A stretch of DNA of 64,000 nt, from contig OZ253564.1 of the NCBI GenBank assembly GCA_965262915.1, positions 2,560,001 to 2,624,000 on the forward strand, given 5' to 3'. Shown one piece after another: positions 55,307 through 64,000 of the stretch. Numbering within the stretch: the first letter of the stretch is position 1; each line of letters begins with the position of its first letter. Source of the stretch: Candidatus Spongiisociaceae bacterium. GTDB taxonomy: Bacteria; Actinomycetota; Acidimicrobiia; Spongiisociales; Spongiisociaceae. Made by a program: the position numbers and the translations under genes. Under the pieces are notes generated by a model. It was not told the DNA's origin and did not search any database. It was given only the letters and a program-made list of their open reading frames with translations.

Positions 55307-56200
55307 TCACCCGTCCACATCCCGGTGCCGGACCGTAGCGTGGTATCCCTGCCCGGCCAGCCAGCTTCCCAGCTCTTCGGCCATGGCAACCGATCGATGG
55401 CGCCCACCCGTACATCCGATACCGATGCTCACGTAGGACTTGCCCTCCTCCCGGTAGCGGGGAACCAGGAATGAAAGCAGGTCGCGCACCCGGTCGAGGA
55501 AACCCTCGGCGTCTTCGTGGGTGAGCACGTGGCGGCGGACCGGCTCGTCCCGGCCTGTCAGCGGGCGCAGATCGGGGATCCAATGCGGGTTGGGCAGGAA
55601 TCGTACGTCGAACATCAGGTCGACGTCCCGGGGGGTACCGTTCTTGAACCCGAACGACATCACCGCCAGGCGCATCGGATGCAGATCGACCAGGGCGGAT
55701 AGGTGGTGGGCGAACCAGCTGCGCAGTTGGTGGACATTGGTCTCGCTCGTGTTCACGTACATGTCTGCCCGCAGGCGCAGGTCGGCCATCATCTCCCGCT
55801 CGACGCTTATGGATTCGGCAAGGGTTTCCAGGCCGAGGGGATGCGGCCTCCGGTGTTCCTCGTAGCGACGGATCAGGGCATCGTCGTCGGCGTCGAGGAA
55901 CACGAGGGTCACTTGGATGCTGGCCTGCTCGAGTTCCTGGATGTGGGTCTCGAGTTCGGATAGAGGGAATCCTCCCCGGCTGTCCAGTACGACTGCCAGG
56001 TGGCGGCTGCCGGCCCGCAGATCGTTGAGGTCGACCGCCCGGCGCAGCAGTTCCGGCGGGAGGTTGTCGATCACGTAGAAGTCGAGATCCTCGAGGACCT
56101 TGGCCCCGGTCGATCGCCCGGCGCCCGACAGACCGGTCAGCACCAGCAACCGGGGGCCGTCTCCGGTGGATGGTCCCGCCGGGGTTTCAGGCTGTGCCAT
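55307..56200 (-). CDS. rapZ: RNase adapter RapZ (YvcJ)
   Basis: GLSGAGRS, IDNLP, SFGFK, DVRFLPNP, GCTGGRHRS. Confidence 0.95.
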   Translation of the reverse strand: MAQPETPAGPSTGDGPRLLVLTGLSGAGRSTGAKVLEDLDFYVIDNLPPELLRRAVDLNDLRAGSRHLAVVLDSRGGFPLSELETHIQELEQASIQVTLVFLDADDDALIRRYEEHRRPHPLGLETLAESISVEREMMADLRLRADMYVNTSETNVHQLRSWFAHHLSALVDLHPMRLAVMSFGFKNGTPRDVDLMFDVRFLPNPHWIPDLRPLTGRDEPVRRHVLTHEDAEGFLDRVRDLLSFLVPRYREEGKSYVSIGIGCTGGRHRSVAMAEELGSWLAGQGYHATVRHRDVDG

Positions 56201-58019
56201 GCAACGTAGCGTAGAGGTTCTCGGCCACCTTGAGCGGTACCACCCGGGCCAGGCGCTCCACGTCGGCGTTCCGGAGTTGCTTGACCGATCCGAACTCGCG
56301 GATGAGGGCCTTCTTGCGGGCCGGACCTATGCCGTACACGTCATCGAGGATCGAGTCGATCATCCGCTTCCCGCGGAGTTGCCGGTGGTACATGAGAGCG
56401 AATCGGTGCGCCTCGTCACGGACCCGCTGGAGGAGGTGCAGTGCCGGTTGGTCCCGCGGGATCACGATGGGCTCCGGCTGTCCGGGTACGTAGACCTCCT
56501 CCATTCGTTTGGCCAGACCGGCTACCGGGACGTCGAGGTCGAACCGGTCGAGAACCTCAACCGCCCTTCCGATCTGTCCCGGCCCGCCGTCGATAAGCAC
56601 CAACGAGGGGGGATAGGCGAACTTCCCTCGCTCGGAGACGGGCTTCTCCAGGTCCTGCAGGTAGGCACTGAAGCGACGCCTGATCACCTCTTCGATGGAG
56701 GCGAAGTCGTCCTGACCCTGCACCGTGCGGATCCGGAACCGCCGGTAGTGGCTCCTGCGTGGGAGTCCGTCCTCCAGCACCACCATCGCTCCGACCGTGT
56801 GGCGCCCTTGGATGGTGGATATGTCGTAGGCCTCGATTCGCAACGGCGGCTCCGGCAGGGCCAGCACCGTCTGGAGGCTTCGCAGGTCCTTCGCCCGGGC
56901 GTTGTGGTCGGTTTGGCGACGGAGGCGGTGGCGTAGGAAGGCTTCGGCGGCGTTGGTCTTGGCGGTCTGCATGAGCCGGCGCTTGGCCCCCCGCTTGGGC
57001 ACCCGCAGCGTCACCCGGGATCCGCGCCGCCTCGACAGCATGTCCGCCCAGGGCTCATCTTCGGGGGGCAGCGCTTCCATTAGGATCCGGCGGGGCGGCG
57101 GTGAGGCCTCGTCGTAAAGGTCCCGCAGGACGGTGGCCATGATCTGTGCCGGGGTGACATCCTCCACCTTGTCGATGATCGATCCGTACCGTCCCACGAT
57201 CCGGCCGTTCCGTACCTTCAGCACCTGTACCGAGCACTCGAGGTCGTCGCTCTCGGTGGCCATCAGGTCGAAGTCCTCCGCACGGTCGGTTACCACCTCC
57301 TGGCGAGCGACAGCCCGGCGCACGTCGCGTATCTGGTCCCTGATCCGGGCGGCCCGCTCGTACTCCAGCATCTCCGAAGAGTCCAGCATCCGCCGATCGA
57401 GCCGCGCCACGAATTCCTCGGCGCTTCCGGTCAGAACCTGAGCCAGGCCGTCCACGTACTCGGCGTACGTATCTTGGTCGACGTATCCGACGCAAGGCGC
57501 CGAGCAACGATCGATCTCGTACTCGATGCACGGGCGTTCCTTCAGTTGGTGGCGGCGGAAGACGGTGTCGGAGCAGGTACGGACGGGGAGGGACTTGAGG
57601 AGCAGATCGAGGGTGTTGCGTATGGCGTATGCGTGGGCGAAGGGCCCGAAGTACTGGGTGCCCTTCTTCTTGGAACCCCGCACGACGCGGGCGCGGGGCC
57701 ACTGGTCGGAGCGGGTGATGGCCAGGTACGGGTAGCTCTTGTCGTCCCGCAGCCGGATGTTGAAGCGGGGCAGGTGCTCCTTGATCAGCGAATACTCGAG
57801 GAACAGGGCCGCTACCTCGCTGTCCACCACGATCCACTCCACCCGGTCCGAGGCCTCGATCATCGCCCGGGTCCGGGGGGCGAGGTCCCTCGTGAAGTAG
57901 GACGCCACCCGCTTGCGCAGCGACTTCGCCTTGCCCACGTAGGTCACCTGACCGTGGGCGTTCCGGAACAGGTATGCGCCAGGCGCGTCGGGTATCTCGG
58001 CGGACTGGGGTCGCTTCAC
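56187..58019 (-). CDS. uvrC: Excinuclease ABC subunit C
   Basis: YVGKAKSLRKRV, LRDDKSYPY, IEAYDIS, RDEAHRFA, HhH GIGP. Confidence 0.97.
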   Translation of the reverse strand: MKRPQSAEIPDAPGAYLFRNAHGQVTYVGKAKSLRKRVASYFTRDLAPRTRAMIEASDRVEWIVVDSEVAALFLEYSLIKEHLPRFNIRLRDDKSYPYLAITRSDQWPRARVVRGSKKKGTQYFGPFAHAYAIRNTLDLLLKSLPVRTCSDTVFRRHQLKERPCIEYEIDRCSAPCVGYVDQDTYAEYVDGLAQVLTGSAEEFVARLDRRMLDSSEMLEYERAARIRDQIRDVRRAVARQEVVTDRAEDFDLMATESDDLECSVQVLKVRNGRIVGRYGSIIDKVEDVTPAQIMATVLRDLYDEASPPPRRILMEALPPEDEPWADMLSRRRGSRVTLRVPKRGAKRRLMQTAKTNAAEAFLRHRLRRQTDHNARAKDLRSLQTVLALPEPPLRIEAYDISTIQGRHTVGAMVVLEDGLPRRSHYRRFRIRTVQGQDDFASIEEVIRRRFSAYLQDLEKPVSERGKFAYPPSLVLIDGGPGQIGRAVEVLDRFDLDVPVAGLAKRMEEVYVPGQPEPIVIPRDQPALHLLQRVRDEAHRFALMYHRQLRGKRMIDSILDDVYGIGPARKKALIREFGSVKQLRNADVERLARVVPLKVAENLYATLHGTA

Positions 58020-58091
58020 AGGATGGCTCCTCGGGTCCGAGGCTACCCGGTTCCGGTTGCGGGTCGGGTCACGGCCGAATGGCGTGGGGCC

Positions 58092-58129
58092 GGCGCATAC
58101 CACACCGCCATTTCACAGACAGACCACTA
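58092..58129. repeat. Family-C right-end fragment
   Basis: GCGCATACCACACCGCCATTTCACAGACAGACCACTA aligns with 23404-23440. Confidence 0.65.
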
Positions 58130-58288
58130 AGAGGGCTAGCGGATAGGTGCTCACCTGGGGAGACACGGGCTGCGACATTTCAAGAGCCGCCCGCGATGAC
58201 CTGGGGTTTCCCGACCAGCAGCCGCCTCGGAATGACTACACGGGCGAGCGCGCTCCGCCTATCCGCTAGCCCTCTAACTCCGGATGGG

Positions 58289-60370
58289 TCAGCCGAAGGC
58301 GCCGAACCAGCGGTCGTGAACCTGGCGGTAGACGCCGCTCTCGATCAGTTCCAGCAGCACCAGGTTGATCCTCTCGCGCAGATCGGTATCCTCCTCGCCG
58401 AGCATCATCCCGTACTGGACCTTTTCGAAGAGCGGACCGACGGTGGCTACCGCGCCTGCGCCCTCACGGGCGGCATGGAAACGCAGCACCGGCGCGTCGA
58501 AAACGATGGCCTCGACATCGCCCACAGCCAGGAGGTCGTAGGCCTCGTCGATCTCCTCCACCAGCACCGGACCGACCCCGAGCGCCACCATGTAGGTCTC
58601 CCCGGTGGATCCGGATACCGCGGCCACGCGATGGCCCGGCAGATCGGCGGGGCCCGAGATTTCGCCCCGCAACTCGTTCACGGCCAGCGAGGAGGCGATC
58701 GCGGCGGTGAAACTGGCGAAGACGAGGGTTCCGAGGGCGATCCAGACCAGGGCGAACACCCGCCCCAACCCGCCCCGTGCCACCTTGTCGCCGTACCCGA
58801 CCGTGCTCATGGTCACCACCGACCAGTAGAACGAGTCCCAGATTCCCCGGCGGTAGGGTACGGCGAAGTCGGGGTTGTGATGGCGTTCCAGCCACCAGAT
58901 CAAGTGGGCGGCCACCAGGACCGCCACCCCGAATACGATCAGCAGCCACGGCAGATCGGATGAGGCGATGGCTCGGAGGAAGGCCAGGATACGATCCCCG
59001 ATACCCTCCGAGGCGTCGGTGGGCGTCATGACGGTCAGGCCCGTGTCGAGCACCGGCAACGAGAAGTCCACCACCTCCTCACGTGGTCCGGTTATAACCA
59101 CGCCTCCCAGGCCCAACCGGGCGACACCGCGGGTTATGTCGTCGATCTGCTTGGCGACGGTATCCACCGCATAGATCTCCACCTGCATGCCGAGGCGGGC
59201 CCCGATGAGGCGCACCAGCGCCACCTCGAAGCCGCTGTAGGCGCGGTTCTCGTAGATCACGAAGGGTGGGAGGGTGCGCGCCGCCACCCTGAGTACACCT
59301 CCTGCTGCCATCGCATCCGTCCGCGAGTCGTCCAATGCCATGGCGTCGGGGTCCGAGGTCTCGATCCAACGGTTGACCGCAGCCTCGTTGGCCGCCACCC
59401 ACTCCCGGGCGTGGCGCCGGATATCCCCGGGATCCCCCTCGTCCTCGACCATCAGCGCGTTCTGGGCCGAGATGTCGTCGAGAGGGATCACGACCTGCTC
59501 CAGGAGCCTGCGAACCGACGGGTTGGCTTCCAGGAAGCCGGAGTTGGCCACCGCCCGGATGTCGTTGGGGGGCCAGCCGACCTGGCACGGATCGTTCGCG
59601 CACCCGGGAATGCCGGGAATGGTGGTCTGGTCGAGGAAGGAGACCTGACCCGGAGGAAGGGATGGGAACGGTGTCTCCAACCACACCACGTCTCTGCCGG
59701 GCACCAACTCGCCGACCGTCCAGTTAGGGGTCCATGTGTAGTACAGGACGGGTGCTCCGGCGTGGTAGCGGGTGATGGTCTCGGCTATCCGGGGCGAGTA
59801 GTCCCCTTGGACCTGTTCCACTGTTGCCGACAAACCGTAGGCGCCGAGATGGTGGTCGATGATCTTGGCGCAGGCCCAGCCGGCTTCACAGCCGACCAGG
59901 TCGGCCCGGCCGTCACCGTCGACATCGAACAGGGCGGCGATACGCGGATCAGCAAGATCCCCGAGGTTGGTGATACCGTGCGCCTCGGCGGTCACCCGAT
60001 CGACGAAATAACCCTGCAAGGCTCCGTCGTCGACCTGCTTTCCGACCGGCTCCACGACGTTGGGCTCGATGAACAGGTCGTGGGAGGGGAACCAGCCGTT
60101 GGCCCACATGTCCACATCACCGCTTGCCGCGGCTCGGTAGAAATCCGGGTTGTCCATGGTGACCGGATCCTCCACGCGGTAGCCCAGGCGTTGGAGCAGG
60201 ATCCGGTACACCTCTGCCTGGAACCAGCCGGTGTCCCACGTCGCTCGGGCCATCCGCACCGTTGGTTCGTCGGCCGACCCGTCATCCGACTGGGCTGTGG
60301 TCGTCCCGCCAAGCACAAGGGCTAGAACGGTTGCCGCGAGCACGGGAACGAGGATGACAGTACGGCGCAT
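58289..60370 (-). CDS. ProX-type betaine-binding domain fused to a GluR0-like ligand-gated K+ channel
   Basis: Signal peptide; ProX (WANGWFP, DLVGC..GW.C, WTPNW); S1 (PPFV, SGFE, REEVVDFS); M1; pore TMSTVGYGD; M2 SFTAAIASS; S2 (GSTG, FDAPVL). Confidence 0.85.
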   Translation of the reverse strand: MRRTVILVPVLAATVLALVLGGTTTAQSDDGSADEPTVRMARATWDTGWFQAEVYRILLQRLGYRVEDPVTMDNPDFYRAAASGDVDMWANGWFPSHDLFIEPNVVEPVGKQVDDGALQGYFVDRVTAEAHGITNLGDLADPRIAALFDVDGDGRADLVGCEAGWACAKIIDHHLGAYGLSATVEQVQGDYSPRIAETITRYHAGAPVLYYTWTPNWTVGELVPGRDVVWLETPFPSLPPGQVSFLDQTTIPGIPGCANDPCQVGWPPNDIRAVANSGFLEANPSVRRLLEQVVIPLDDISAQNALMVEDEGDPGDIRRHAREWVAANEAAVNRWIETSDPDAMALDDSRTDAMAAGGVLRVAARTLPPFVIYENRAYSGFEVALVRLIGARLGMQVEIYAVDTVAKQIDDITRGVARLGLGGVVITGPREEVVDFSLPVLDTGLTVMTPTDASEGIGDRILAFLRAIASSDLPWLLIVFGVAVLVAAHLIWWLERHHNPDFAVPYRRGIWDSFYWSVVTMSTVGYGDKVARGGLGRVFALVWIALGTLVFASFTAAIASSLAVNELRGEISGPADLPGHRVAAVSGSTGETYMVALGVGPVLVEEIDEAYDLLAVGDVEAIVFDAPVLRFHAAREGAGAVATVGPLFEKVQYGMMLGEEDTDLRERINLVLLELIESGVYRQVHDRWFGAFG

Positions 60371-60579
60371 GGTTCTATCCGTCTGGGGGCACACCGAAGG
60401 TTAGCGATAGTTGAGCAGACGTGAAACGAACTATGAAGAAAATGAATGAATGGCCGACACGGTGTCGGCTCCCGGATGTAGGATTTTGTGACCGGAGGAA
60501 CTCCGAGAATGGCCGGTGACGGCTAGAGACAGCTACAGAGAGGAGCGACAGATGGTTTGTTGCGACACAGGTTCGCGCC

Positions 60580-62346
60580 ATGGCTGACGACCAGGACCTT
60601 GACCTCACCAAGATCTCCGAGGCCTACGAGGACTGGGAAGAGGAGCAAGAACGCCGCCGCGAGGCTGCCATCCGGGATCGTGGGCACTTCGAGGGTCTTC
60701 AGGTCGATGCTGACATCGACTTCTATCCCGAGGTGGCCGACCGGGAGCCCGGTGACAGGAACATAGTCAAGTGGGGATTCGACATACATCCCCAGGTGAC
60801 TTTCTCCGCCGCCGGATTCATGGTGGTGTTCATCCTGGCCACTCTGTTGTTCCCAGATCAGGCGAGCGGGGTGTTCGGCGCCGTCCTCAACTTCATCAAC
60901 GAGAAGGTGGGCTGGCTGTACATCATCTCGTTCAACATCTTCATCGGAGCCGCGCTCTACTTCGCGTTGGGCAGGTACGGCAAGATTCGACTGGGTGGTC
61001 CAAGGGCCCTTCCGGAGTTCTCCACCGGCGCCTGGTACGCCATGTTGATCTCCGCCGGTCTCGGCATCGGGCTGATGTTCTGGGGTGTGGCAGAGCCGAT
61101 CTTCCACCTGACAGCACCGCCTCCCCTGTTCGACGTAGAACCCTTGTCGGCGGGCGCGGCCAGAGCCTCACTGGCGACCTCCTACCTACACTGGGGGATT
61201 CATGGATGGGCGCTGTACGGCCTGGTAGCCCTCGCCCTGGGATTCTTCGCCTACAACCGAGGTCTGCCACTGACCTTCCGCTCGGTGTTCTATCCGATCC
61301 TCGGGCCGAAGATCTACGGCAGATGGGGCAATGCGATCGATACTCTCACCGTGGTGGCGACCCTCTTCGGTCTCGCCACCTCACTGGGATTCGGCGCGTC
61401 ACAGGCTGCCGCGGGGCTGAACAAGGTCTTCGGTCTCCCGGATACCCTGTTGGTCCAGATAGTGCTGATCGCAGGTATTACGGGGCTGGCCACCATCTCG
61501 GTGGTCGCCGGTTTGGATGCCGGGGTCAAGAGGCTCAGCCAGCTCAACGTGTGGCTGGCCGGAACCTTCCTGGTCTTCGTGCTCCTGGTCGGTCCCACCC
61601 TGTTGGTTCTCTCGCTGTACGTGGAGAGCATCGGTGTCTATCTCCAGATACTCCCGGAGTTCTCGTTCTGGAACGCCGCCTTGGTCGACACACAGTGGCA
61701 GCAGTGGTGGACCATCTTCTACTGGGGATGGTGGATCTCCTGGTCCCCCTTCGTCGGCATGTTCATCGCCCGGATATCCAAGGGGCGCTCGGTGCGGGAG
61801 ATGATCATCGGTGTGATCGTCCTTCCCTGCCTCCTGTGCTTCCTGTGGTTCGCGGTGTTCGGGGGAGCGGCCATGGATCTCCAGATGCGTGGTGAGCTGG
61901 ACGTGGCCACTGCGGTCAACGAGAACGTGGCGACCGCCCTGTTCGTGATGCTGGAGGCCTTCCCGTGGACTTACTTCGTCTCGTTAGTCGGCATCCTGTT
62001 GCTGATCTCGTTCTTCGTCACCTCGTCGGACTCGGGATCTCTGGTGGTGGACCACCTCACCTCAGGAGGAAAGCTCGACTCACCCAAACCGCAGCGCGTT
62101 TTCTGGGCGCTGATGGAAGGCTTGGTGGCCATAGTGCTGCTGATCGGAGGCGGCCTATCGGCCCTCCAGACGGCTGCCGTGGCTACCGGACTGCCTTTCC
62201 TCTTCGTGCTCCTGATCATGCTGTGGGCCCTGAAGAAGGCCTTCGATGAAGAGCTCGACCTGTTGGAGAGCCACTACGACGAGGCCATCTTCGAAGCCCA
62301 GCACAGCGGCTTGATCGAGCGACTGGGAAGTGGAGGTGAAAAGTGA
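60580..62346 (+). CDS. BCCT family (betaine/carnitine/choline) transporter
   Basis: KIRLGG, AGLGIGLMFWGVAEP, HWGIHGW, WTIFYWGWWISWSPFVGMFIARISKGR, TSSDSG. Confidence 0.95.
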   Translation: MADDQDLDLTKISEAYEDWEEEQERRREAAIRDRGHFEGLQVDADIDFYPEVADREPGDRNIVKWGFDIHPQVTFSAAGFMVVFILATLLFPDQASGVFGAVLNFINEKVGWLYIISFNIFIGAALYFALGRYGKIRLGGPRALPEFSTGAWYAMLISAGLGIGLMFWGVAEPIFHLTAPPPLFDVEPLSAGAARASLATSYLHWGIHGWALYGLVALALGFFAYNRGLPLTFRSVFYPILGPKIYGRWGNAIDTLTVVATLFGLATSLGFGASQAAAGLNKVFGLPDTLLVQIVLIAGITGLATISVVAGLDAGVKRLSQLNVWLAGTFLVFVLLVGPTLLVLSLYVESIGVYLQILPEFSFWNAALVDTQWQQWWTIFYWGWWISWSPFVGMFIARISKGRSVREMIIGVIVLPCLLCFLWFAVFGGAAMDLQMRGELDVATAVNENVATALFVMLEAFPWTYFVSLVGILLLISFFVTSSDSGSLVVDHLTSGGKLDSPKPQRVFWALMEGLVAIVLLIGGGLSALQTAAVATGLPFLFVLLIMLWALKKAFDEELDLLESHYDEAIFEAQHSGLIERLGSGGEK

Positions 62347-63281
62347 TCAAGAGATCAAGCACACTGATCGCCGCTGTCGCGGCTTTCGTGCTGGTGCTCT
62401 CGGCCTGCGGCGTCGAAGACGAAGGTGGGCCCGTGGCCATAGCCCGGGCCAACTGGGACTCCGGCTACATGCAGGCCGCCATCTATGCACAGCTGATCGA
62501 GGAACTCGGGTACGAGGTCACCGATCCCGCCGCCAGCACCCTTAGCCCCTATTCGTTCTATCCGGCGTTGGCCGCCGGCCAGTACGATCTGTGGGCCAAC
62601 GGGTGGTTCCCCCTCCACGATATCTACCTGGAAGGAGAAAACGTTACCGGCCAGGCGGTCGAACTACCCATCGAAGAGGTGGGTTGGCAAGTGGCCCAAG
62701 GGGCCACGGACGGCCTGATGATCGACAAGGCCACGGCTGACAGCTACGGCATCACCTCGATGGACGGCGTGGCTGCCAATGCCGGTCTCTTCGACGGGGG
62801 CGACGACGGCAAGGCCGATCTGATCGGATGCAACGTCGGATGGGGATGTGAAACCGCCATCAACGAACAGATCGCCAATGAGAGTTGGGGCGCCGGGGTC
62901 GAACAGATCTCCGGTGTTTACAACGACTTGGCCGAAGGCGTCGTGGCGAAGGTAGCCGCTGGTGAGCCGGCACTGTTCTACGCTTGGACACCCAACTGGA
63001 CGAACACCGTCCTGGTGGCGGGCGACAACGCGGTATGGCTGCAGTCCAACGTGAATGACATCCGGGCAGTAGCCAACAGTGACTTCCTGGATGCAAACCC
63101 GGATATCCGCCTTCTCCTCGAGGAGGTGGTCATTCCGTTGGGTGACATCGCAGCGCAAAACGCCAAGATGGCAGCCGGAGACTACACCGAGGCTGACGTC
63201 GAAGCTGACGCCCAAGCATGGATTGCCAGTAATCGGGACAAGGTCGACAGCTGGCTGGCAACAGCGCGAGCCGCCGGCTGA
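62343..63281 (+). CDS. Glycine betaine/proline-binding lipoprotein (ProX/OpuAC-like)
   Basis: Lipobox LSAC, RANWDSG, WANGWFP, GCNVGWGC, WTPNW; GTGA overlap with the BCCT stop. Confidence 0.88.
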   Translation: MIKRSSTLIAAVAAFVLVLSACGVEDEGGPVAIARANWDSGYMQAAIYAQLIEELGYEVTDPAASTLSPYSFYPALAAGQYDLWANGWFPLHDIYLEGENVTGQAVELPIEEVGWQVAQGATDGLMIDKATADSYGITSMDGVAANAGLFDGGDDGKADLIGCNVGWGCETAINEQIANESWGAGVEQISGVYNDLAEGVVAKVAAGEPALFYAWTPNWTNTVLVAGDNAVWLQSNVNDIRAVANSDFLDANPDIRLLLEEVVIPLGDIAAQNAKMAAGDYTEADVEADAQAWIASNRDKVDSWLATARAAG

Positions 63282-63316
63282 TAGGTCGAGAACCGAGACA
63301 GCAAACAGCGAAAAAG

Positions 63317-63357
63317 AAGACCCGGCTCCTCATCGATTCATGAGGAGCCGGGTCTTT
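63317..63357. terminator. Bidirectional intrinsic terminator
   Basis: Perfect 17-bp stem AAGACCCGGCTCCTCAT / ATGAGGAGCCGGGTCTT between convergent genes, with A-tract and short T-tract flanks. Confidence 0.85.
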
Positions 63358-63377
63358 GCGTGGCTGGGCGAACCTTG

Positions 63378-64000
63378 CTATCGCCGCCGCCACCGGATCG
63401 CCATGAGGTGAGGGATGTCCCGGTGCTTCGCGAGGATCGGATCCCTGGTGGCCGCGCCCGACCCGACGCCCTGCTCCCGCATCTCCTCCAGTATCCATCC
63501 CGCCGCGGCGGCTTCGGTCAGCAGCGTTCCGATCGGCCGATGGATGAACTCGACGGTCCGATCTCCGGCTGGATCACGGGTCTGCCCCTCAGTCAAATAG
63601 CTGCCGAATCTCCAGAACAGTTCACCGTCGGTCGGGTCGAGTACAGGTCCCGATTCCGGTGCCGTGTAGACCGGGTGGTTGATCACCGCCGCCAGAAATC
63701 CGCCCGGACGGGTCACCCGCGAAGTCTCCGCGAAGAAGAGTCGGGAGTCACCCAGGTGTTCGAGGGTCAGAACTATGTAGGCGCCGTCCACCGCCGCATC
63801 CCGCACGCACGCCATGTCCGGTAGATGGTTGATGAGGACAGGATGGCTGCGGGCGGCGATCCGGGCGAGATCGATGTTGAGGTCGACTCCGATAACACGC
63901 GCTCCCCTGGCGGCTACCAGATCCTGGATCCGGCCGTCGCCGCATCCGAGGTCGAGCAAGACCTGACCACCCACCGGCCCTAACACCTCCAGGAAGAGGG
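63378..64000 (-). CDS. Class I SAM-dependent methyltransferase (5' end outside window)
   Basis: LLDLGCGDG, IGVD, RPGG. Confidence 0.85.
   Translation of the reverse strand, partial: LFLEVLGPVGGQVLLDLGCGDGRIQDLVAARGARVIGVDLNIDLARIAARSHPVLINHLPDMACVRDAAVDGAYIVLTLEHLGDSRLFFAETSRVTRPGGFLAAVINHPVYTAPESGPVLDPTDGELFWRFGSYLTEGQTRDPAGDRTVEFIHRPIGTLLTEAAAAGWILEEMREQGVGSGAATRDPILAKHRDIPHLMAIRWRRR

Follow-up and report, generated by a model that had tools for sequence, protein, structure and literature searches.

On the usual view, the glutamate receptors of eukaryotes were assembled stepwise, from a K+ pore, a binding protein that supplied the agonist site and a second binding protein that became the regulatory N-terminal domain. 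Their bacterial counterpart GluR0 (slr1257 of Synechocystis) was described by Chen et al. (1999, as cited in the accessible part of PMC12226733) as a K+ channel gated by glutamate. In GluR0 and its homologue from Nostoc punctiforme the pore module interrupts a SBP_bac_3-type ligand-binding core and divides it into the halves S1 and S2, in the order S1-M1-P-M2-S2. The P-loop contains a K+-channel signature, no transmembrane segment follows S2, and no domain other than a signal peptide precedes S1. ProX of E. coli (PDB entry 1r9l) is a free periplasmic protein serving the ABC importer ProU; Trp65 and Trp188 are named as its box in the available part of PMC8601584, citing Schiefner 2004.

Two systems in which substrate-binding proteins (SBPs) act outside transport are close to the present case. 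In Halobacterium salinarum the OpuAC-family protein CosB binds glycine betaine, choline and carnitine and signals to the transducer CosT, according to the accessible text of a review on SBP-dependent sensors (PMC8050422), in which the term 'ion channel' is absent. In an engineered chimera the ectoine-binding protein EhuB, joined to the GluR0 pore, gates it (Bernhard and Laube, bioRxiv 10.1101/2021.01.27.428399, accessible portion).

The window, that is, the whole 64,000-nucleotide stretch of DNA analysed here, from a Candidatus Spongiisociaceae bacterium, a sponge associate among the Actinomycetota, encodes a protein that shares with GluR0 the S1-M1-P-M2-S2 order, the K+-channel signature and the absence of a transmembrane segment after S2. 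Unlike GluR0, it has a whole ProX clamshell of 300 residues before S1. Unlike E. coli ProX, this clamshell forms one polypeptide with an ion channel. It resembles the EhuB chimera in joining an osmolyte-binding SBP to a GluR0-type pore; however, the chimera is man-made and its SBP replaces S1S2, whereas the present fusion occurs in nature and has its SBP added above an intact S1S2. As in the CosB/CosT system, an OpuAC-family protein would serve sensing and not transport, but CosB is a separate protein acting on a chemotaxis transducer, whereas ProX here is fused to the channel.

Domain structure and ligand-binding sites

The longest frame of the fusion gene (58289..60394, minus strand) opens at GTG. 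The ATG at 60370 yields a protein of 693 residues, and close homologues likewise start with MRR...; thus this ATG is the likely start codon. The coding part without the stop codon (58289-58291) is 58292..60370. The features of the gene are as follows.

58289..60370, minus strand: ProX-GluR0 fusion gene, 693 codons and stop (ORF list, translation, Pfam, NCBIfam)
60293..60370, minus strand: predicted N-terminal signal or anchor segment, residues 1-26 (MRR, hydrophobic helix 4-19, ..TAQ)
59360..60262, minus strand: ProX/OpuAC betaine-binding domain, residues 37-337 (Pfam, NCBIfam, 1r9l, Foldseek)
59297..59359, minus strand: acidic interdomain linker, residues 338-358 (low pLDDT, low identity)
58991..59296, minus strand: S1 half of the ligand-binding core, residues 359-460 (aligned with residues 5-103 of 2pyy; T427, R430, D435)
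58667..58990, minus strand: pore module, residues 461-568 (pre-M1 helix, M1 473-495, pore helix 506-523, filter, M2 534-569)
58787..58804, minus strand: TVGYGD K+ selectivity signature, residues 523-528 (sequence)
58292..58666, minus strand: S2 half of the ligand-binding core, residues 569-693 (aligned with residues 102-222 of 2pyy; S588, D625)

The order of domains is thus signal segment, ProX/OpuAC, linker, S1, M1, P-loop with TVGYGD, M2 and S2. Pfam assigns residues 37-326 to OpuAC (5.6e-50), 362-690, with an interruption, to SBP_bac_3, 483-562 to Ion_trans_2 (1.2e-14), 475-578 to Lig_chan and 361-450 to Lig_chan-Glu_bd. The AF2 model has a mean pLDDT of 90.2; its pTM of 0.55 and a linker pLDDT below 50 mean that it contains no confident arrangement of ProX relative to the ligand-binding core and no confident interdomain packing. 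The architecture proposed in a preliminary description of this DNA, namely a signal peptide, a full ProX-like domain and the S1-M1-P(TVGYGD)-M2-S2 topology, is borne out by Pfam, NCBIfam, the PDB alignments and this model. The N-terminal segment is a putative signal segment or anchor, judging by its basic start and the following hydrophobic 12-mer (MRRTVILVPVLAATVLALVLGG..AQ), a pattern seen in 112 of the 122 family proteins whose N-terminus is in the alignment; helix 4-19 has low pLDDT in the model. The linker of about 20 residues (pLDDT below 50 at 348-355) varies between 20 and 38 residues among homologues, with a median identity of 48% versus 68-89% in the domains.

The N-terminal domain scores 351.9 bits against the NCBIfam ProX equivalog (NF008334, cut-off 215). 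Among PDB sequences, E. coli ProX 1r9l matches residues 38-337 at 1.7e-66, with 39% identity across the whole domain, and Foldseek superimposes the two with a TM-score of 0.90 and an rmsd of 2.4 A. The characteristic residues are W93, H97, W165, W213 and the cysteine pairs C161-C167 and C257-C262. In the alignment E. coli W65, H69, C136, W140, C142 and W188 have identical counterparts, W93, W165, W213 and H97 being paired with W65, W140, W188 and H69, respectively; the flanking prolines and the Cys136-Cys142 pair are aligned as well. We take Trp140 of E. coli ProX to belong to the box, which receives the trimethylammonium group, and His69 to contact the carboxylate. The Trp box (W93, W165, W213), the prolines flanking it (P95 and P215) and all four cysteines, hence both disulfides, are present in 119 of 119 family proteins. 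H97 occurs in 103 of them and is replaced by Q in the other 16. In remote representatives W165 is replaced by L, A or N in three cases of ten. Pairwise dN/dS against 18 orthologues is 0.14 for ProX, 0.17 for S1, 0.11 for the transmembrane part, 0.25 for S2 and 0.29 for the linker, so that purifying selection on the ProX domain is as strong as on the ligand-binding core. By these sequence criteria the fused ProX domain is intact as a clamshell, predicted to bind betaine. Of the osmolytes suggested earlier (betaine, proline or DMSP-type), the betaines agree with the best match, the glycine betaine/proline betaine protein ProX, while DMSP has no specific support.

Two stretches on either side of the pore, 360-459 and 569-690, match the ligand-binding core of Nostoc GluR0 (2pyy) at 5e-36, with its Arg, Ser/Thr and Asp contacts retained. 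R430, T427 and D625 have identical partners in the glutamate-bound Nostoc core and are conserved in 119, 118 and 115 of the 119 family proteins, respectively; D625 is S or H in four of ten remote representatives. Positions 586, 587, 589 and 591 of S2 vary freely across the family. The core thus keeps the Arg and Asp of a predicted L-amino-acid site, and the alignments with 1r9l and 2pyy and the family counts show that binding residues are retained in both clamshells.

The TVGYGD signature is present in 119 of 119 family proteins and nine of ten remote representatives, and the pore module alone has BK/Slo K+ channels as its best match (9.9e-10). Sequence and model together show an inverted K+-channel pore made up of M1, the P-loop and M2. 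The model also matches LBD-TMD chains of AMPA receptors in Foldseek at E about 1e-20. Helix M2 contains the segment SFTAAIASS (553-561), the putative counterpart of SYTANLAAF proposed earlier; it is spanned by the Lig_chan match, and its start (S/Y)FTA is conserved in remote homologues. The protein stops at residue 693, in the last helix of S2; therefore there is no third transmembrane segment.

As in the N-terminal domain of eukaryotic receptors such as the NMDA receptor, a second clamshell, predicted to be outside the membrane, stands before S1 on a short linker. However, the eukaryotic domain is of the ANF_receptor (LIVBP) type and M4 follows S2, whereas the outer domain here belongs to the OpuAC family and the pore is of the two-transmembrane K+ type. 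No Pfam match to ANF_receptor or Peripla_BP_6 was found in the fusion protein at E up to 0.01. The N-terminal domain was therefore gained independently of the eukaryotic one, in agreement with what had been proposed. In other words, bacteria took the last step of receptor assembly on their own, with another kind of binding protein, and the family offers a small, K+-selective, two-transmembrane model of communication between a distal clamshell and a gate.

Gene neighbourhood and transcripts

The fusion gene is flanked by uvrC and by a gene of a BCCT-family carrier; there are no ABC genes next to it, and the ORF list and Pfam revealed no proV or proW beside it in the window. The features on the carrier side are as follows.

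60580..62346, plus strand: BCCT-family betaine-type transporter, 588 residues, divergent from the channel gene (Pfam BCCT 2.2e-185)
62343..63281, plus strand: free ProX-like lipoprotein, 312 residues, lipobox LSAC, start overlapping the BCCT stop (OpuAC 1.1e-35)
60552..60587, plus strand: upstream ORF of 11 codons, its TGA overlapping the BCCT start (ATGGCTGA), preceded by GAGAGGAG
63317..63356, no strand assigned: terminator-like palindrome with a 17-bp stem, after the lipoprotein gene (consensus scan)

The BCCT protein scores above the cut-off of TIGR00842; against the betaine_BCCT equivalog it has 541 bits, under the cut-off of 650. A BCCT gene adjoins the fusion gene not only in the window but also in all 18 genomes of the family that were fetched, at three further loci (L018, L020 and L022) and in four of four more distant Actinomycetota. 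Across Actinomycetota the two genes are divergent, convergent or co-directional. No BCCT gene was found near the fusion at any of the five cyanobacterial loci (7-19 kb fetched for each); therefore the link with the transporter is not universal.

The free lipoprotein is present in most fusion loci of Actinomycetota. It scores 228.9 bits against the NCBIfam ProX equivalog and is 39% identical to the fused domain (E 3e-76), from which it differs by lacking a 33-residue insert. It is thus a paralogue, as had been noted, but not the nearest relative of the fused domain; the two belong to separate clades, and the lipoprotein is rejected as the donor of the fused domain.

The 11-codon upstream ORF, or a longer one containing it (23 codons in the window, 33 codons at locus L103), was found in the window and in 11 of 23 other loci. 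The spacing between its ATG and that of the BCCT gene is gap-free in all 14 aligned intergenic regions. The scan gave two terminator-like sites, not above the number in shuffled sequences, and zero sites in the sigma-70 promoter scan; a search of 57500-64000 against Rfam at E up to 1 yielded no match.

Among contigs assembled from two sponge metatranscriptome runs, which do not permit a ranking of expression levels, some extend over the BCCT gene and the lipoprotein gene at 95-99% similarity. The channel gene is represented by short pieces only (58280-58488, 58772-58941, 59373-59567 and 60154-60379) at a word depth of 2-4, by which its transcription is neither proved nor excluded.

Possible role of the second clamshell

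These observations are consistent with a GluR0-like K+ channel that is gated by ligands, has two sensors and links K+ flux with the availability and uptake of betaine, a reading to which we give about an even chance. The channel would be tetrameric, K+-selective and opened by an extracellular ligand, with a second, distal sensor gained. According to sequence and model, ProX and the two halves of S1S2 lie outside the membrane, where the signal segment is predicted to put them. The membrane-proximal core would bind an L-amino acid via T427, R430 and D625 and, as GluR0 does, would open the gate by pulling on M1 and M2. On its flexible linker, the ProX domain would use the box formed by W93, W165 and W213, together with H97, to bind glycine betaine or a similar quaternary amine, and may modulate or co-activate gating according to whether the clamshell is open or closed. 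[quoted passage not shown]

The gene neighbourhood suggests that the channel acts together with the BCCT transporter and the free lipoprotein, and it may thus tie K+ flow to osmolyte uptake. External betaine would lead to an adjustment of K+ flux, most probably K+ release in exchange for the compatible solute, the direction of the flux being purely our inference. The release would offset the positive charge entering with cation-coupled import of betaine. In the accessible part of PMC8844918, K+ import is described as transient, with import of compatible solutes and K+ efflux coming after. The family is therefore a candidate link between K+ content and the arrival of compatible solutes, a link poorly understood in molecular terms.

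A stronger form of this reading, which is tentative and on the whole improbable, makes the channel, the carrier and the lipoprotein one three-part unit of osmolyte exchange. The channel's own ProX domain would read external betaine and open a K+ valve, while the lipoprotein would pass betaine to the carrier; K+ would leave as betaine and its coupling cations enter, balancing charge and osmolarity in one step. If so, this would be the first natural bacterial receptor of the glutamate type whose outer domain acts allosterically or as a co-agonist site, making it a convergent 'NMDA-like' receptor for two ligands, and the carrier would be the first member of the BCCT family assisted by a binding protein.

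One alternative is that betaine is the sole physiological agonist and ProX the true sensor, S1S2 having turned into a passive transducer or into a platform on which closed ProX docks. A liganded SBP docks in a similar way on its ABC transporter or chemoreceptor, and tethered docking domains do exist: the SBD1-SBD2 tandem of GlnPQ (6h30) is among the fold matches. The invariant Trp box is stricter than the four variable positions of S2, and D625 is missing in the remote representatives mentioned above. However, the contacts to the alpha-carboxylate and alpha-amino groups (R430, T427, D625) are retained in 115-119 of 119 proteins, purifying selection acts on both S1 and S2, plain channels sit within the fused clade, and the model does not pack the domains confidently. 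We consider this alternative unlikely.

It is less likely still that ProX is a tethered capture domain which, like the lipoprotein, raises the local concentration of betaine for the carrier, with the channel gated by amino acids only. We know of no BCCT carriers that employ binding proteins, the five cyanobacterial carriers of the fusion retain it without a BCCT neighbour, and most loci in Actinomycetota already have the free lipoprotein for capture. A tetrameric channel would also be an odd covalent anchor where a lipid anchor suffices. What speaks for capture is the conserved neighbourhood of the BCCT and lipoprotein genes and the long, poorly conserved linker of low model confidence.

For the N-terminal domains of AMPA receptors a role in assembly or stabilisation has been proposed. 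The fused ProX domain occupies the same position in the chain, and it is lost or decayed in some members of the clade; it could therefore be purely structural, serving assembly or stabilisation of the tetramer, with its pocket a conserved relic. This is very unlikely, as a relic would not keep three tryptophans, P95, P215 and both disulfides in 119 of 119 proteins at a dN/dS of 0.14.

Betaine-type compounds may also be nutrients, and not osmolytes, for the organism, which carries several further ProX paralogues.

Distribution and authenticity of the fusion

Among 24 genomes of the same family, 19 encode the fusion in full length. In the homologue search it was present in 120 of 120 proteins among the matches listed, and the fused proteins form 11 clusters at 50% identity. 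Matches spanning the junction were obtained in five of 401 Actinomycetota and five of 301 Cyanobacteria sampled, query genomes counted in; thus outside the family the fusion is sporadic in Actinomycetota and in Cyanobacteria. A pattern search from an 11-row alignment gave at least five fused loci among the 80 matches listed, ordinary K+ channels dominating the rest.

That the fusion is artefactual, through chimeric assembly or a mis-joined ORF, or that it belongs to a decaying pseudogene, is ruled out with near certainty: one relative (G015) has a frame break in the channel part and in another (G023) the gene is divided between two contig ends, but the frame is uninterrupted in a one-contig genome of 5.06 Mb and recurs in 18 further genomes and many metagenomes, near-identical DNA is found in sequencing runs of nine studies, and every domain is under purifying selection. 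The suspicion attached to the preliminary description, that the fusion might be absent from relatives, is dispelled by the 19 genomes and the carriers in Actinomycetota and Cyanobacteria.

Among GluR0-like channels the fused proteins form a subclade of their own. In the tree of the channel part all 17 fused channels fall within one supported set of 22 rows (SH-aLRT 97), and the AU test does not reject monophyly of the fused ProX domains (p-AU 0.484). The fused clade of channels includes two plain channels with signal peptides of their own (P0200 and P0212) and one channel with an internally deleted remnant of ProX (P0150); thus the channel evidently can do without ProX.

A full-text literature search found no description of a ProX-fused GluR0-type channel and no paper on betaine with Poriferisodal- or Spongiisocius-named bacteria. 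The design is conserved but apparently unstudied. In public annotation the fused proteins are called 'ABC transporter substrate-binding protein ProX', a label that conceals the channel part.

Domain organization and binding sites

The channel gene is accompanied by genes of a transporter and a free binding protein:
58289..60394, minus strand: open reading frame of the channel, with a GTG start in the ORF list
60580..62346, plus strand: BCCT transporter (Pfam, 2.2e-185), scoring above the TIGR00842 cut-off but under that of the betaine_BCCT equivalog
62343..63281, plus strand: ProX-like lipoprotein with a GTG start and the lipobox LSAC

Translation of the channel gene from the ATG at 60370 yields a protein of 693 residues (P0001), whose start, MRR, is common to close homologues. 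Pfam assigns OpuAC to residues 37-326 (5.6e-50), Lig_chan-Glu_bd to 361-450, Lig_chan to 475-578, Ion_trans_2 to 483-562, and SBP_bac_3 over 362-690; the NCBIfam ProX equivalog scores 351.9 bits against the cut-off of 215. Among PDB sequences, residues 38-337 match ProX of E. coli (1r9l, 1.7e-66), and the C-terminal half matches the ligand-binding core of Nostoc punctiforme GluR0 (2pyy, 5e-36), the latter match being split into 360-459 and 569-690 with the pore in between. The AlphaFold2 model, computed from an alignment of 118 rows, has mean pLDDT 90.2 and pTM 0.55, with low confidence at residues 1-5, 21-31 and 348-355. It contains helices at 457-470 (pre-M1), 473-495 (M1), 506-523 (pore helix) and 534-569 (M2), and no membrane-spanning segment past the second half of the core, S2. 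Foldseek aligns the model with 1r9l (TM 0.90, rmsd 2.4 A, 307 columns) and with LBD-TMD chains of AMPA receptors (E about 1e-20, target TM-scores mostly 0.45-0.6). As the domain, PDB and structural matches agree, the anatomy claimed in the preliminary description, a ProX-like domain followed by a GluR0-type channel with TVGYGD, is correct.

The isolated pore module is closer in sequence to the BK/Slo K+ channels (9.9e-10), with which it shares VTMSTVGYGD, than to a plant GLR (6.9e-7). The motif SFTAAIASS, putative counterpart of SYTANLAAF, occupies residues 553-561. The linker, 20-38 residues long among homologues, weakly conserved and modelled with low confidence, behaves as a tether.

Six residues of E. 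coli ProX, W65, H69, C136, W140, C142 and W188 (counted along the 1r9l chain in the alignment), are identical in P0001, where they are W93, H97, C161, W165, C167 and W213. Trp140 and His69 presumably have roles in the betaine pocket. The walls of the betaine box are formed by Trp65 and Trp188, set by two cis-prolines, according to the part of PMC8601584 that cites Schiefner et al. 2004. In the GluR0-type core, R430, T427 and D625 coincide with the residues at equivalent positions of glutamate-bound 2pyy. From general knowledge of the fold, we take them to be the alpha-carboxylate and alpha-amino contacts.

Conservation of pocket and filter residues (numbering of P0001) in 119 family proteins (71-100% identical; from the best 120 of 807 matches) and in 10 remote representatives
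W93: family 119/119; remote 9/10
P95: family 119/119; remote 9/10
H97: family 103/119 (16 Q); remote 7/10
C161, C167, C257, C262: family 119/119; remote 10/10
W165: family 119/119; remote 7/10
W213: family 119/119; remote 9/10
P215: family 119/119; remote 10/10
T427: family 118/119; remote 8/10
R430: family 119/119; remote 10/10
TVGYGD: family 119/119; remote 9/10
D625: family 115/119; remote 6/10

In two metagenomic proteins, P0124 (1008 aa) and P0135 (689 aa), GREGWGK replaces TVGYGDK, and the Trp box is degraded, with N at the W93 position. The longest contig is 29437 for both, so they are possible neighbours. These proteins could be a non-K+-selective or non-conducting offshoot.

Distribution and origin of the fusion

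The genome containing the window (G000, one contig of 5.06 Mb) has a single copy of the fusion gene. The gene lies in one stretch in 18 of 24 other genomes of the family, one of which (G015) has a frame break in it, and is divided between two contig ends in G023. It was not found in five: G009, G014, G011 (88% complete), G012 (72% complete) and G016, the last having a plain channel only. No full-length match was found in 16 genomes from other families of the order (G028 included). The G015 orthologue (locus L113, G015:C1, 9061-10067) occupies two frames that part at query residue 279/280 in the channel portion, owing to a frameshift or else to an error in sequencing.

All of the best 120 proteins among the 807 matches combine OpuAC, SBP_bac_3 and Ion_trans_2, and NCBI labels several of them 'glycine betaine/L-proline ABC transporter substrate-binding protein ProX'. 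The same architecture occurs in 10 proteins of a library of representatives at 50% identity, and an eleventh representative, P0124, has two ProX domains ahead of the channel. A 191-residue query (270-460 of P0001) has junction-spanning matches in 5 of 401 sampled Actinomycetota, namely G000 and four genomes (G196, G183, G147, G173) that represent a different family of the order, a different family of the class and two further classes. In the phylum of the cyanobacterial MAG G436, such matches occur in 5 of the 301 genomes sampled, G436 among them. The ESM Atlas contains two clusters with this domain set (131 and 52 members), Actinomycetota being commonest. The preliminary description had allowed for a chimeric assembly absent from relatives; on the contrary, the fusion is present in same-family genomes, other Actinomycetota and Cyanobacteria.

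Median pairwise dN/dS between the window gene and 18 orthologues, a rough value since dS is near 1, is 0.14 for ProX, 0.17 for S1 (the first half of the core), 0.11 for TM, 0.25 for S2 and 0.29 for the linker; the respective median identities are 77%, 75%, 89%, 68% and 48%. Every part of the protein is under purifying selection, and by these estimates the ProX domain is as constrained as the agonist-binding core. An assembly or ORF artefact is excluded by the one-contig genome, the fusion in relatives and the low dN/dS. The fusion channel is real and conserved.

The channel-part tree (72 rows, quick IQ-TREE) unites all 17 fused proteins in one set of 22 rows (SH-aLRT 97) and leaves the other 50 plain GluR0-like representatives outside. 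The non-fused rows of this set are P0179, a fragment of a fused protein that lacks its N-terminal end; P0150, retaining a ProX remnant with an internal deletion; P0182, with an unrelated N-terminal extension; and P0200 and P0212, which have signal peptides and are true plain channels. The ProX-domain tree (61 rows) places the fused domains in two supported groups, with a backbone that lacks resolution, and a tree uniting them is not rejected (p-AU 0.484, log-likelihood difference 0.09). Given the channel tree and this non-rejected joint clade, the simplest reading, not a proven one, is one ancient fusion followed by a few losses. The fused domain and the lipoprotein at 62343 are indeed paralogues (39% identity), as proposed. 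However, the fused domain is not a recent copy of the lipoprotein, since the neighbouring lipoproteins form their own clade, as do the other ProX paralogues of G000.

Outside the window, an 813-aa ORF of G000 (C1:1884327-1886768, minus strand; loci L002/L003) encodes two tandem OpuAC domains that hardly differ (branch lengths of 0.0025 and 0.023 in the tree). Similar two-domain frames occur in relatives.

Three of four sequence-level features of GluR0 are found in the fusion channel, which is predicted to work like GluR0; the fourth, no domain before S1, is not. The fused domain is a ProX protein in sequence, fold and pocket, but not a free partner of an ABC importer. The likeness to eukaryotic iGluRs is in the layer order only, as the outer domain is ANF_receptor there and OpuAC here (Pfam). 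No description of a ProX-GluR0 fusion was found in the full text of open-access papers. The prokaryotic iGluR survey of Ger et al. 2010 (PMC2950845) does not contain the terms betaine, OpuAC, ProX, N-terminal or fusion, 'ion channel' is absent from a review of SBP signalling (PMC8050422), and PMC12226733 mentions bacterial GluR0 in passing only. The fusion thus appears to be an unreported form of an otherwise known channel type, with a predicted function, and is clearly interesting for the evolution of iGluRs and for osmoregulation in bacteria.

Gene neighbourhood and predicted mechanism

The BCCT gene is divergent from the channel gene. The GTG start of the lipoprotein gene overlaps the BCCT stop (GTGA), and a palindrome with a 17-bp stem lies 3' of the lipoprotein gene. 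The lipoprotein has no 33-residue insert bearing the second disulfide. The BCCT-lipoprotein pair is kept in 17 of 18 fetched family genomes, where the two genes abut in the same way or are separated by a small gap, and the pair is also kept in three of four distant Actinomycetota. We know of no described binding protein coupled to a BCCT secondary carrier.

Adjacency of the channel and BCCT genes, scored by tblastn (L019 left out, being on the same contig as the locus of G013)
18/18 fetched family genomes: adjacent; 17 divergent, G008 convergent
L018: adjacent, partial at contig end; divergent
L020: adjacent; divergent
L022: adjacent; convergent
G196: adjacent; BCCT, ProX and channel co-directional
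G173, G147: adjacent; convergent
G183: adjacent; channel then BCCT, free ProX not found

The channel gene is linked to the BCCT carrier in Actinomycetota, and the persistence of adjacency through three orientations speaks for a functional link and against mere inheritance of gene order. No BCCT gene was found near the channel in five cyanobacterial loci fetched at 7-19 kb (L021, G700, G509, G464, and G450 with its 7 kb contig); the neighbours in L021 are ndh genes, Ycf48, RTX proteins and a Znu ABC system. G000 also encodes one K+ uptake protein of the TrkH type and one other Ion_trans_2 protein.

Immediately downstream of the channel gene comes uvrC (56187-58103), likewise on the minus strand, and its match adjoins the channel in 13 of 18 fetched family loci (exceptions G008, G010, G015, G018, G019). 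Within 58000-63500, G+C is about 0.66 in the channel gene and 0.60-0.62 in the BCCT and lipoprotein genes. Identity among congeners is much higher for BCCT (90-94%) than for the channel (74-83%).

Sequence and model show that the protein has an outward ProX clamshell with an intact betaine-type pocket, an outward S1S2 clamshell with intact amino-acid contacts and a two-TM pore of the K+ type. Very probably it works as a K+ channel and its extra domain is functional too, and the ligand of the ProX domain is likely to be of the betaine type. The pore would be gated by the S1S2 core, as in GluR0, and the ProX domain would add a second sensor that modulates or co-activates gating according to its ligand state; the chances for and against such ProX-dependent modulation seem to us about equal. 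BetP-type BCCT carriers import betaine coupled to cations. In the standard model of osmoadaptation, as outlined in a part of PMC8844918, transient K+ import is followed by compatible-solute import and K+ efflux. Under this model and with cation-coupled betaine import, a K+ path opened by betaine would let surplus K+ out and also balance the inward charge, and the unit would match K+ flux to betaine supply. The whole proposal, a two-sensor channel tying K+ flux to betaine supply, could be right or wrong with about equal probability. Other possibilities are that ProX is the sole agonist sensor, that it captures ligand for the transporter, or that its role is purely structural.

Hints of transcription and candidate regulatory signals

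Near-identical DNA is present in runs of nine studies, two runs being sponge metatranscriptomes. The RNA evidence consists of assembled contigs only. In these two runs, and in two others guessed to be RNA, contigs 95-99% alike extend over the BCCT and lipoprotein genes; in three runs of two studies they start at 60511-60518. The channel gene has short contigs only (word depth 2-4), at most a hint of its transcription.

Within 60537-60587 (plus strand), an upstream ORF of 11 codons, encoding MVCCDTGSRHG, follows a strong Shine-Dalgarno box, GAGAGGAG, and its TGA stop overlaps the BCCT start: ATGGCTGA. Given the contig starts, it would fall in the BCCT leader. The distance from its ATG to that of the BCCT gene, 28 nt, is gap-free in all 14 aligned relatives, whereas the peptide itself varies in sequence. 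One possibility is control of the BCCT transporter by translational coupling or by a leader peptide.

A scan with the sigma-70 consensus found no sites. The intergenic regions of 14 genomes contain a conserved TA(A/G)CCT about 20 nt upstream of the channel ATG (about 60394-60399, minus strand), which might serve the channel gene as the -10 element of a promoter of its own.
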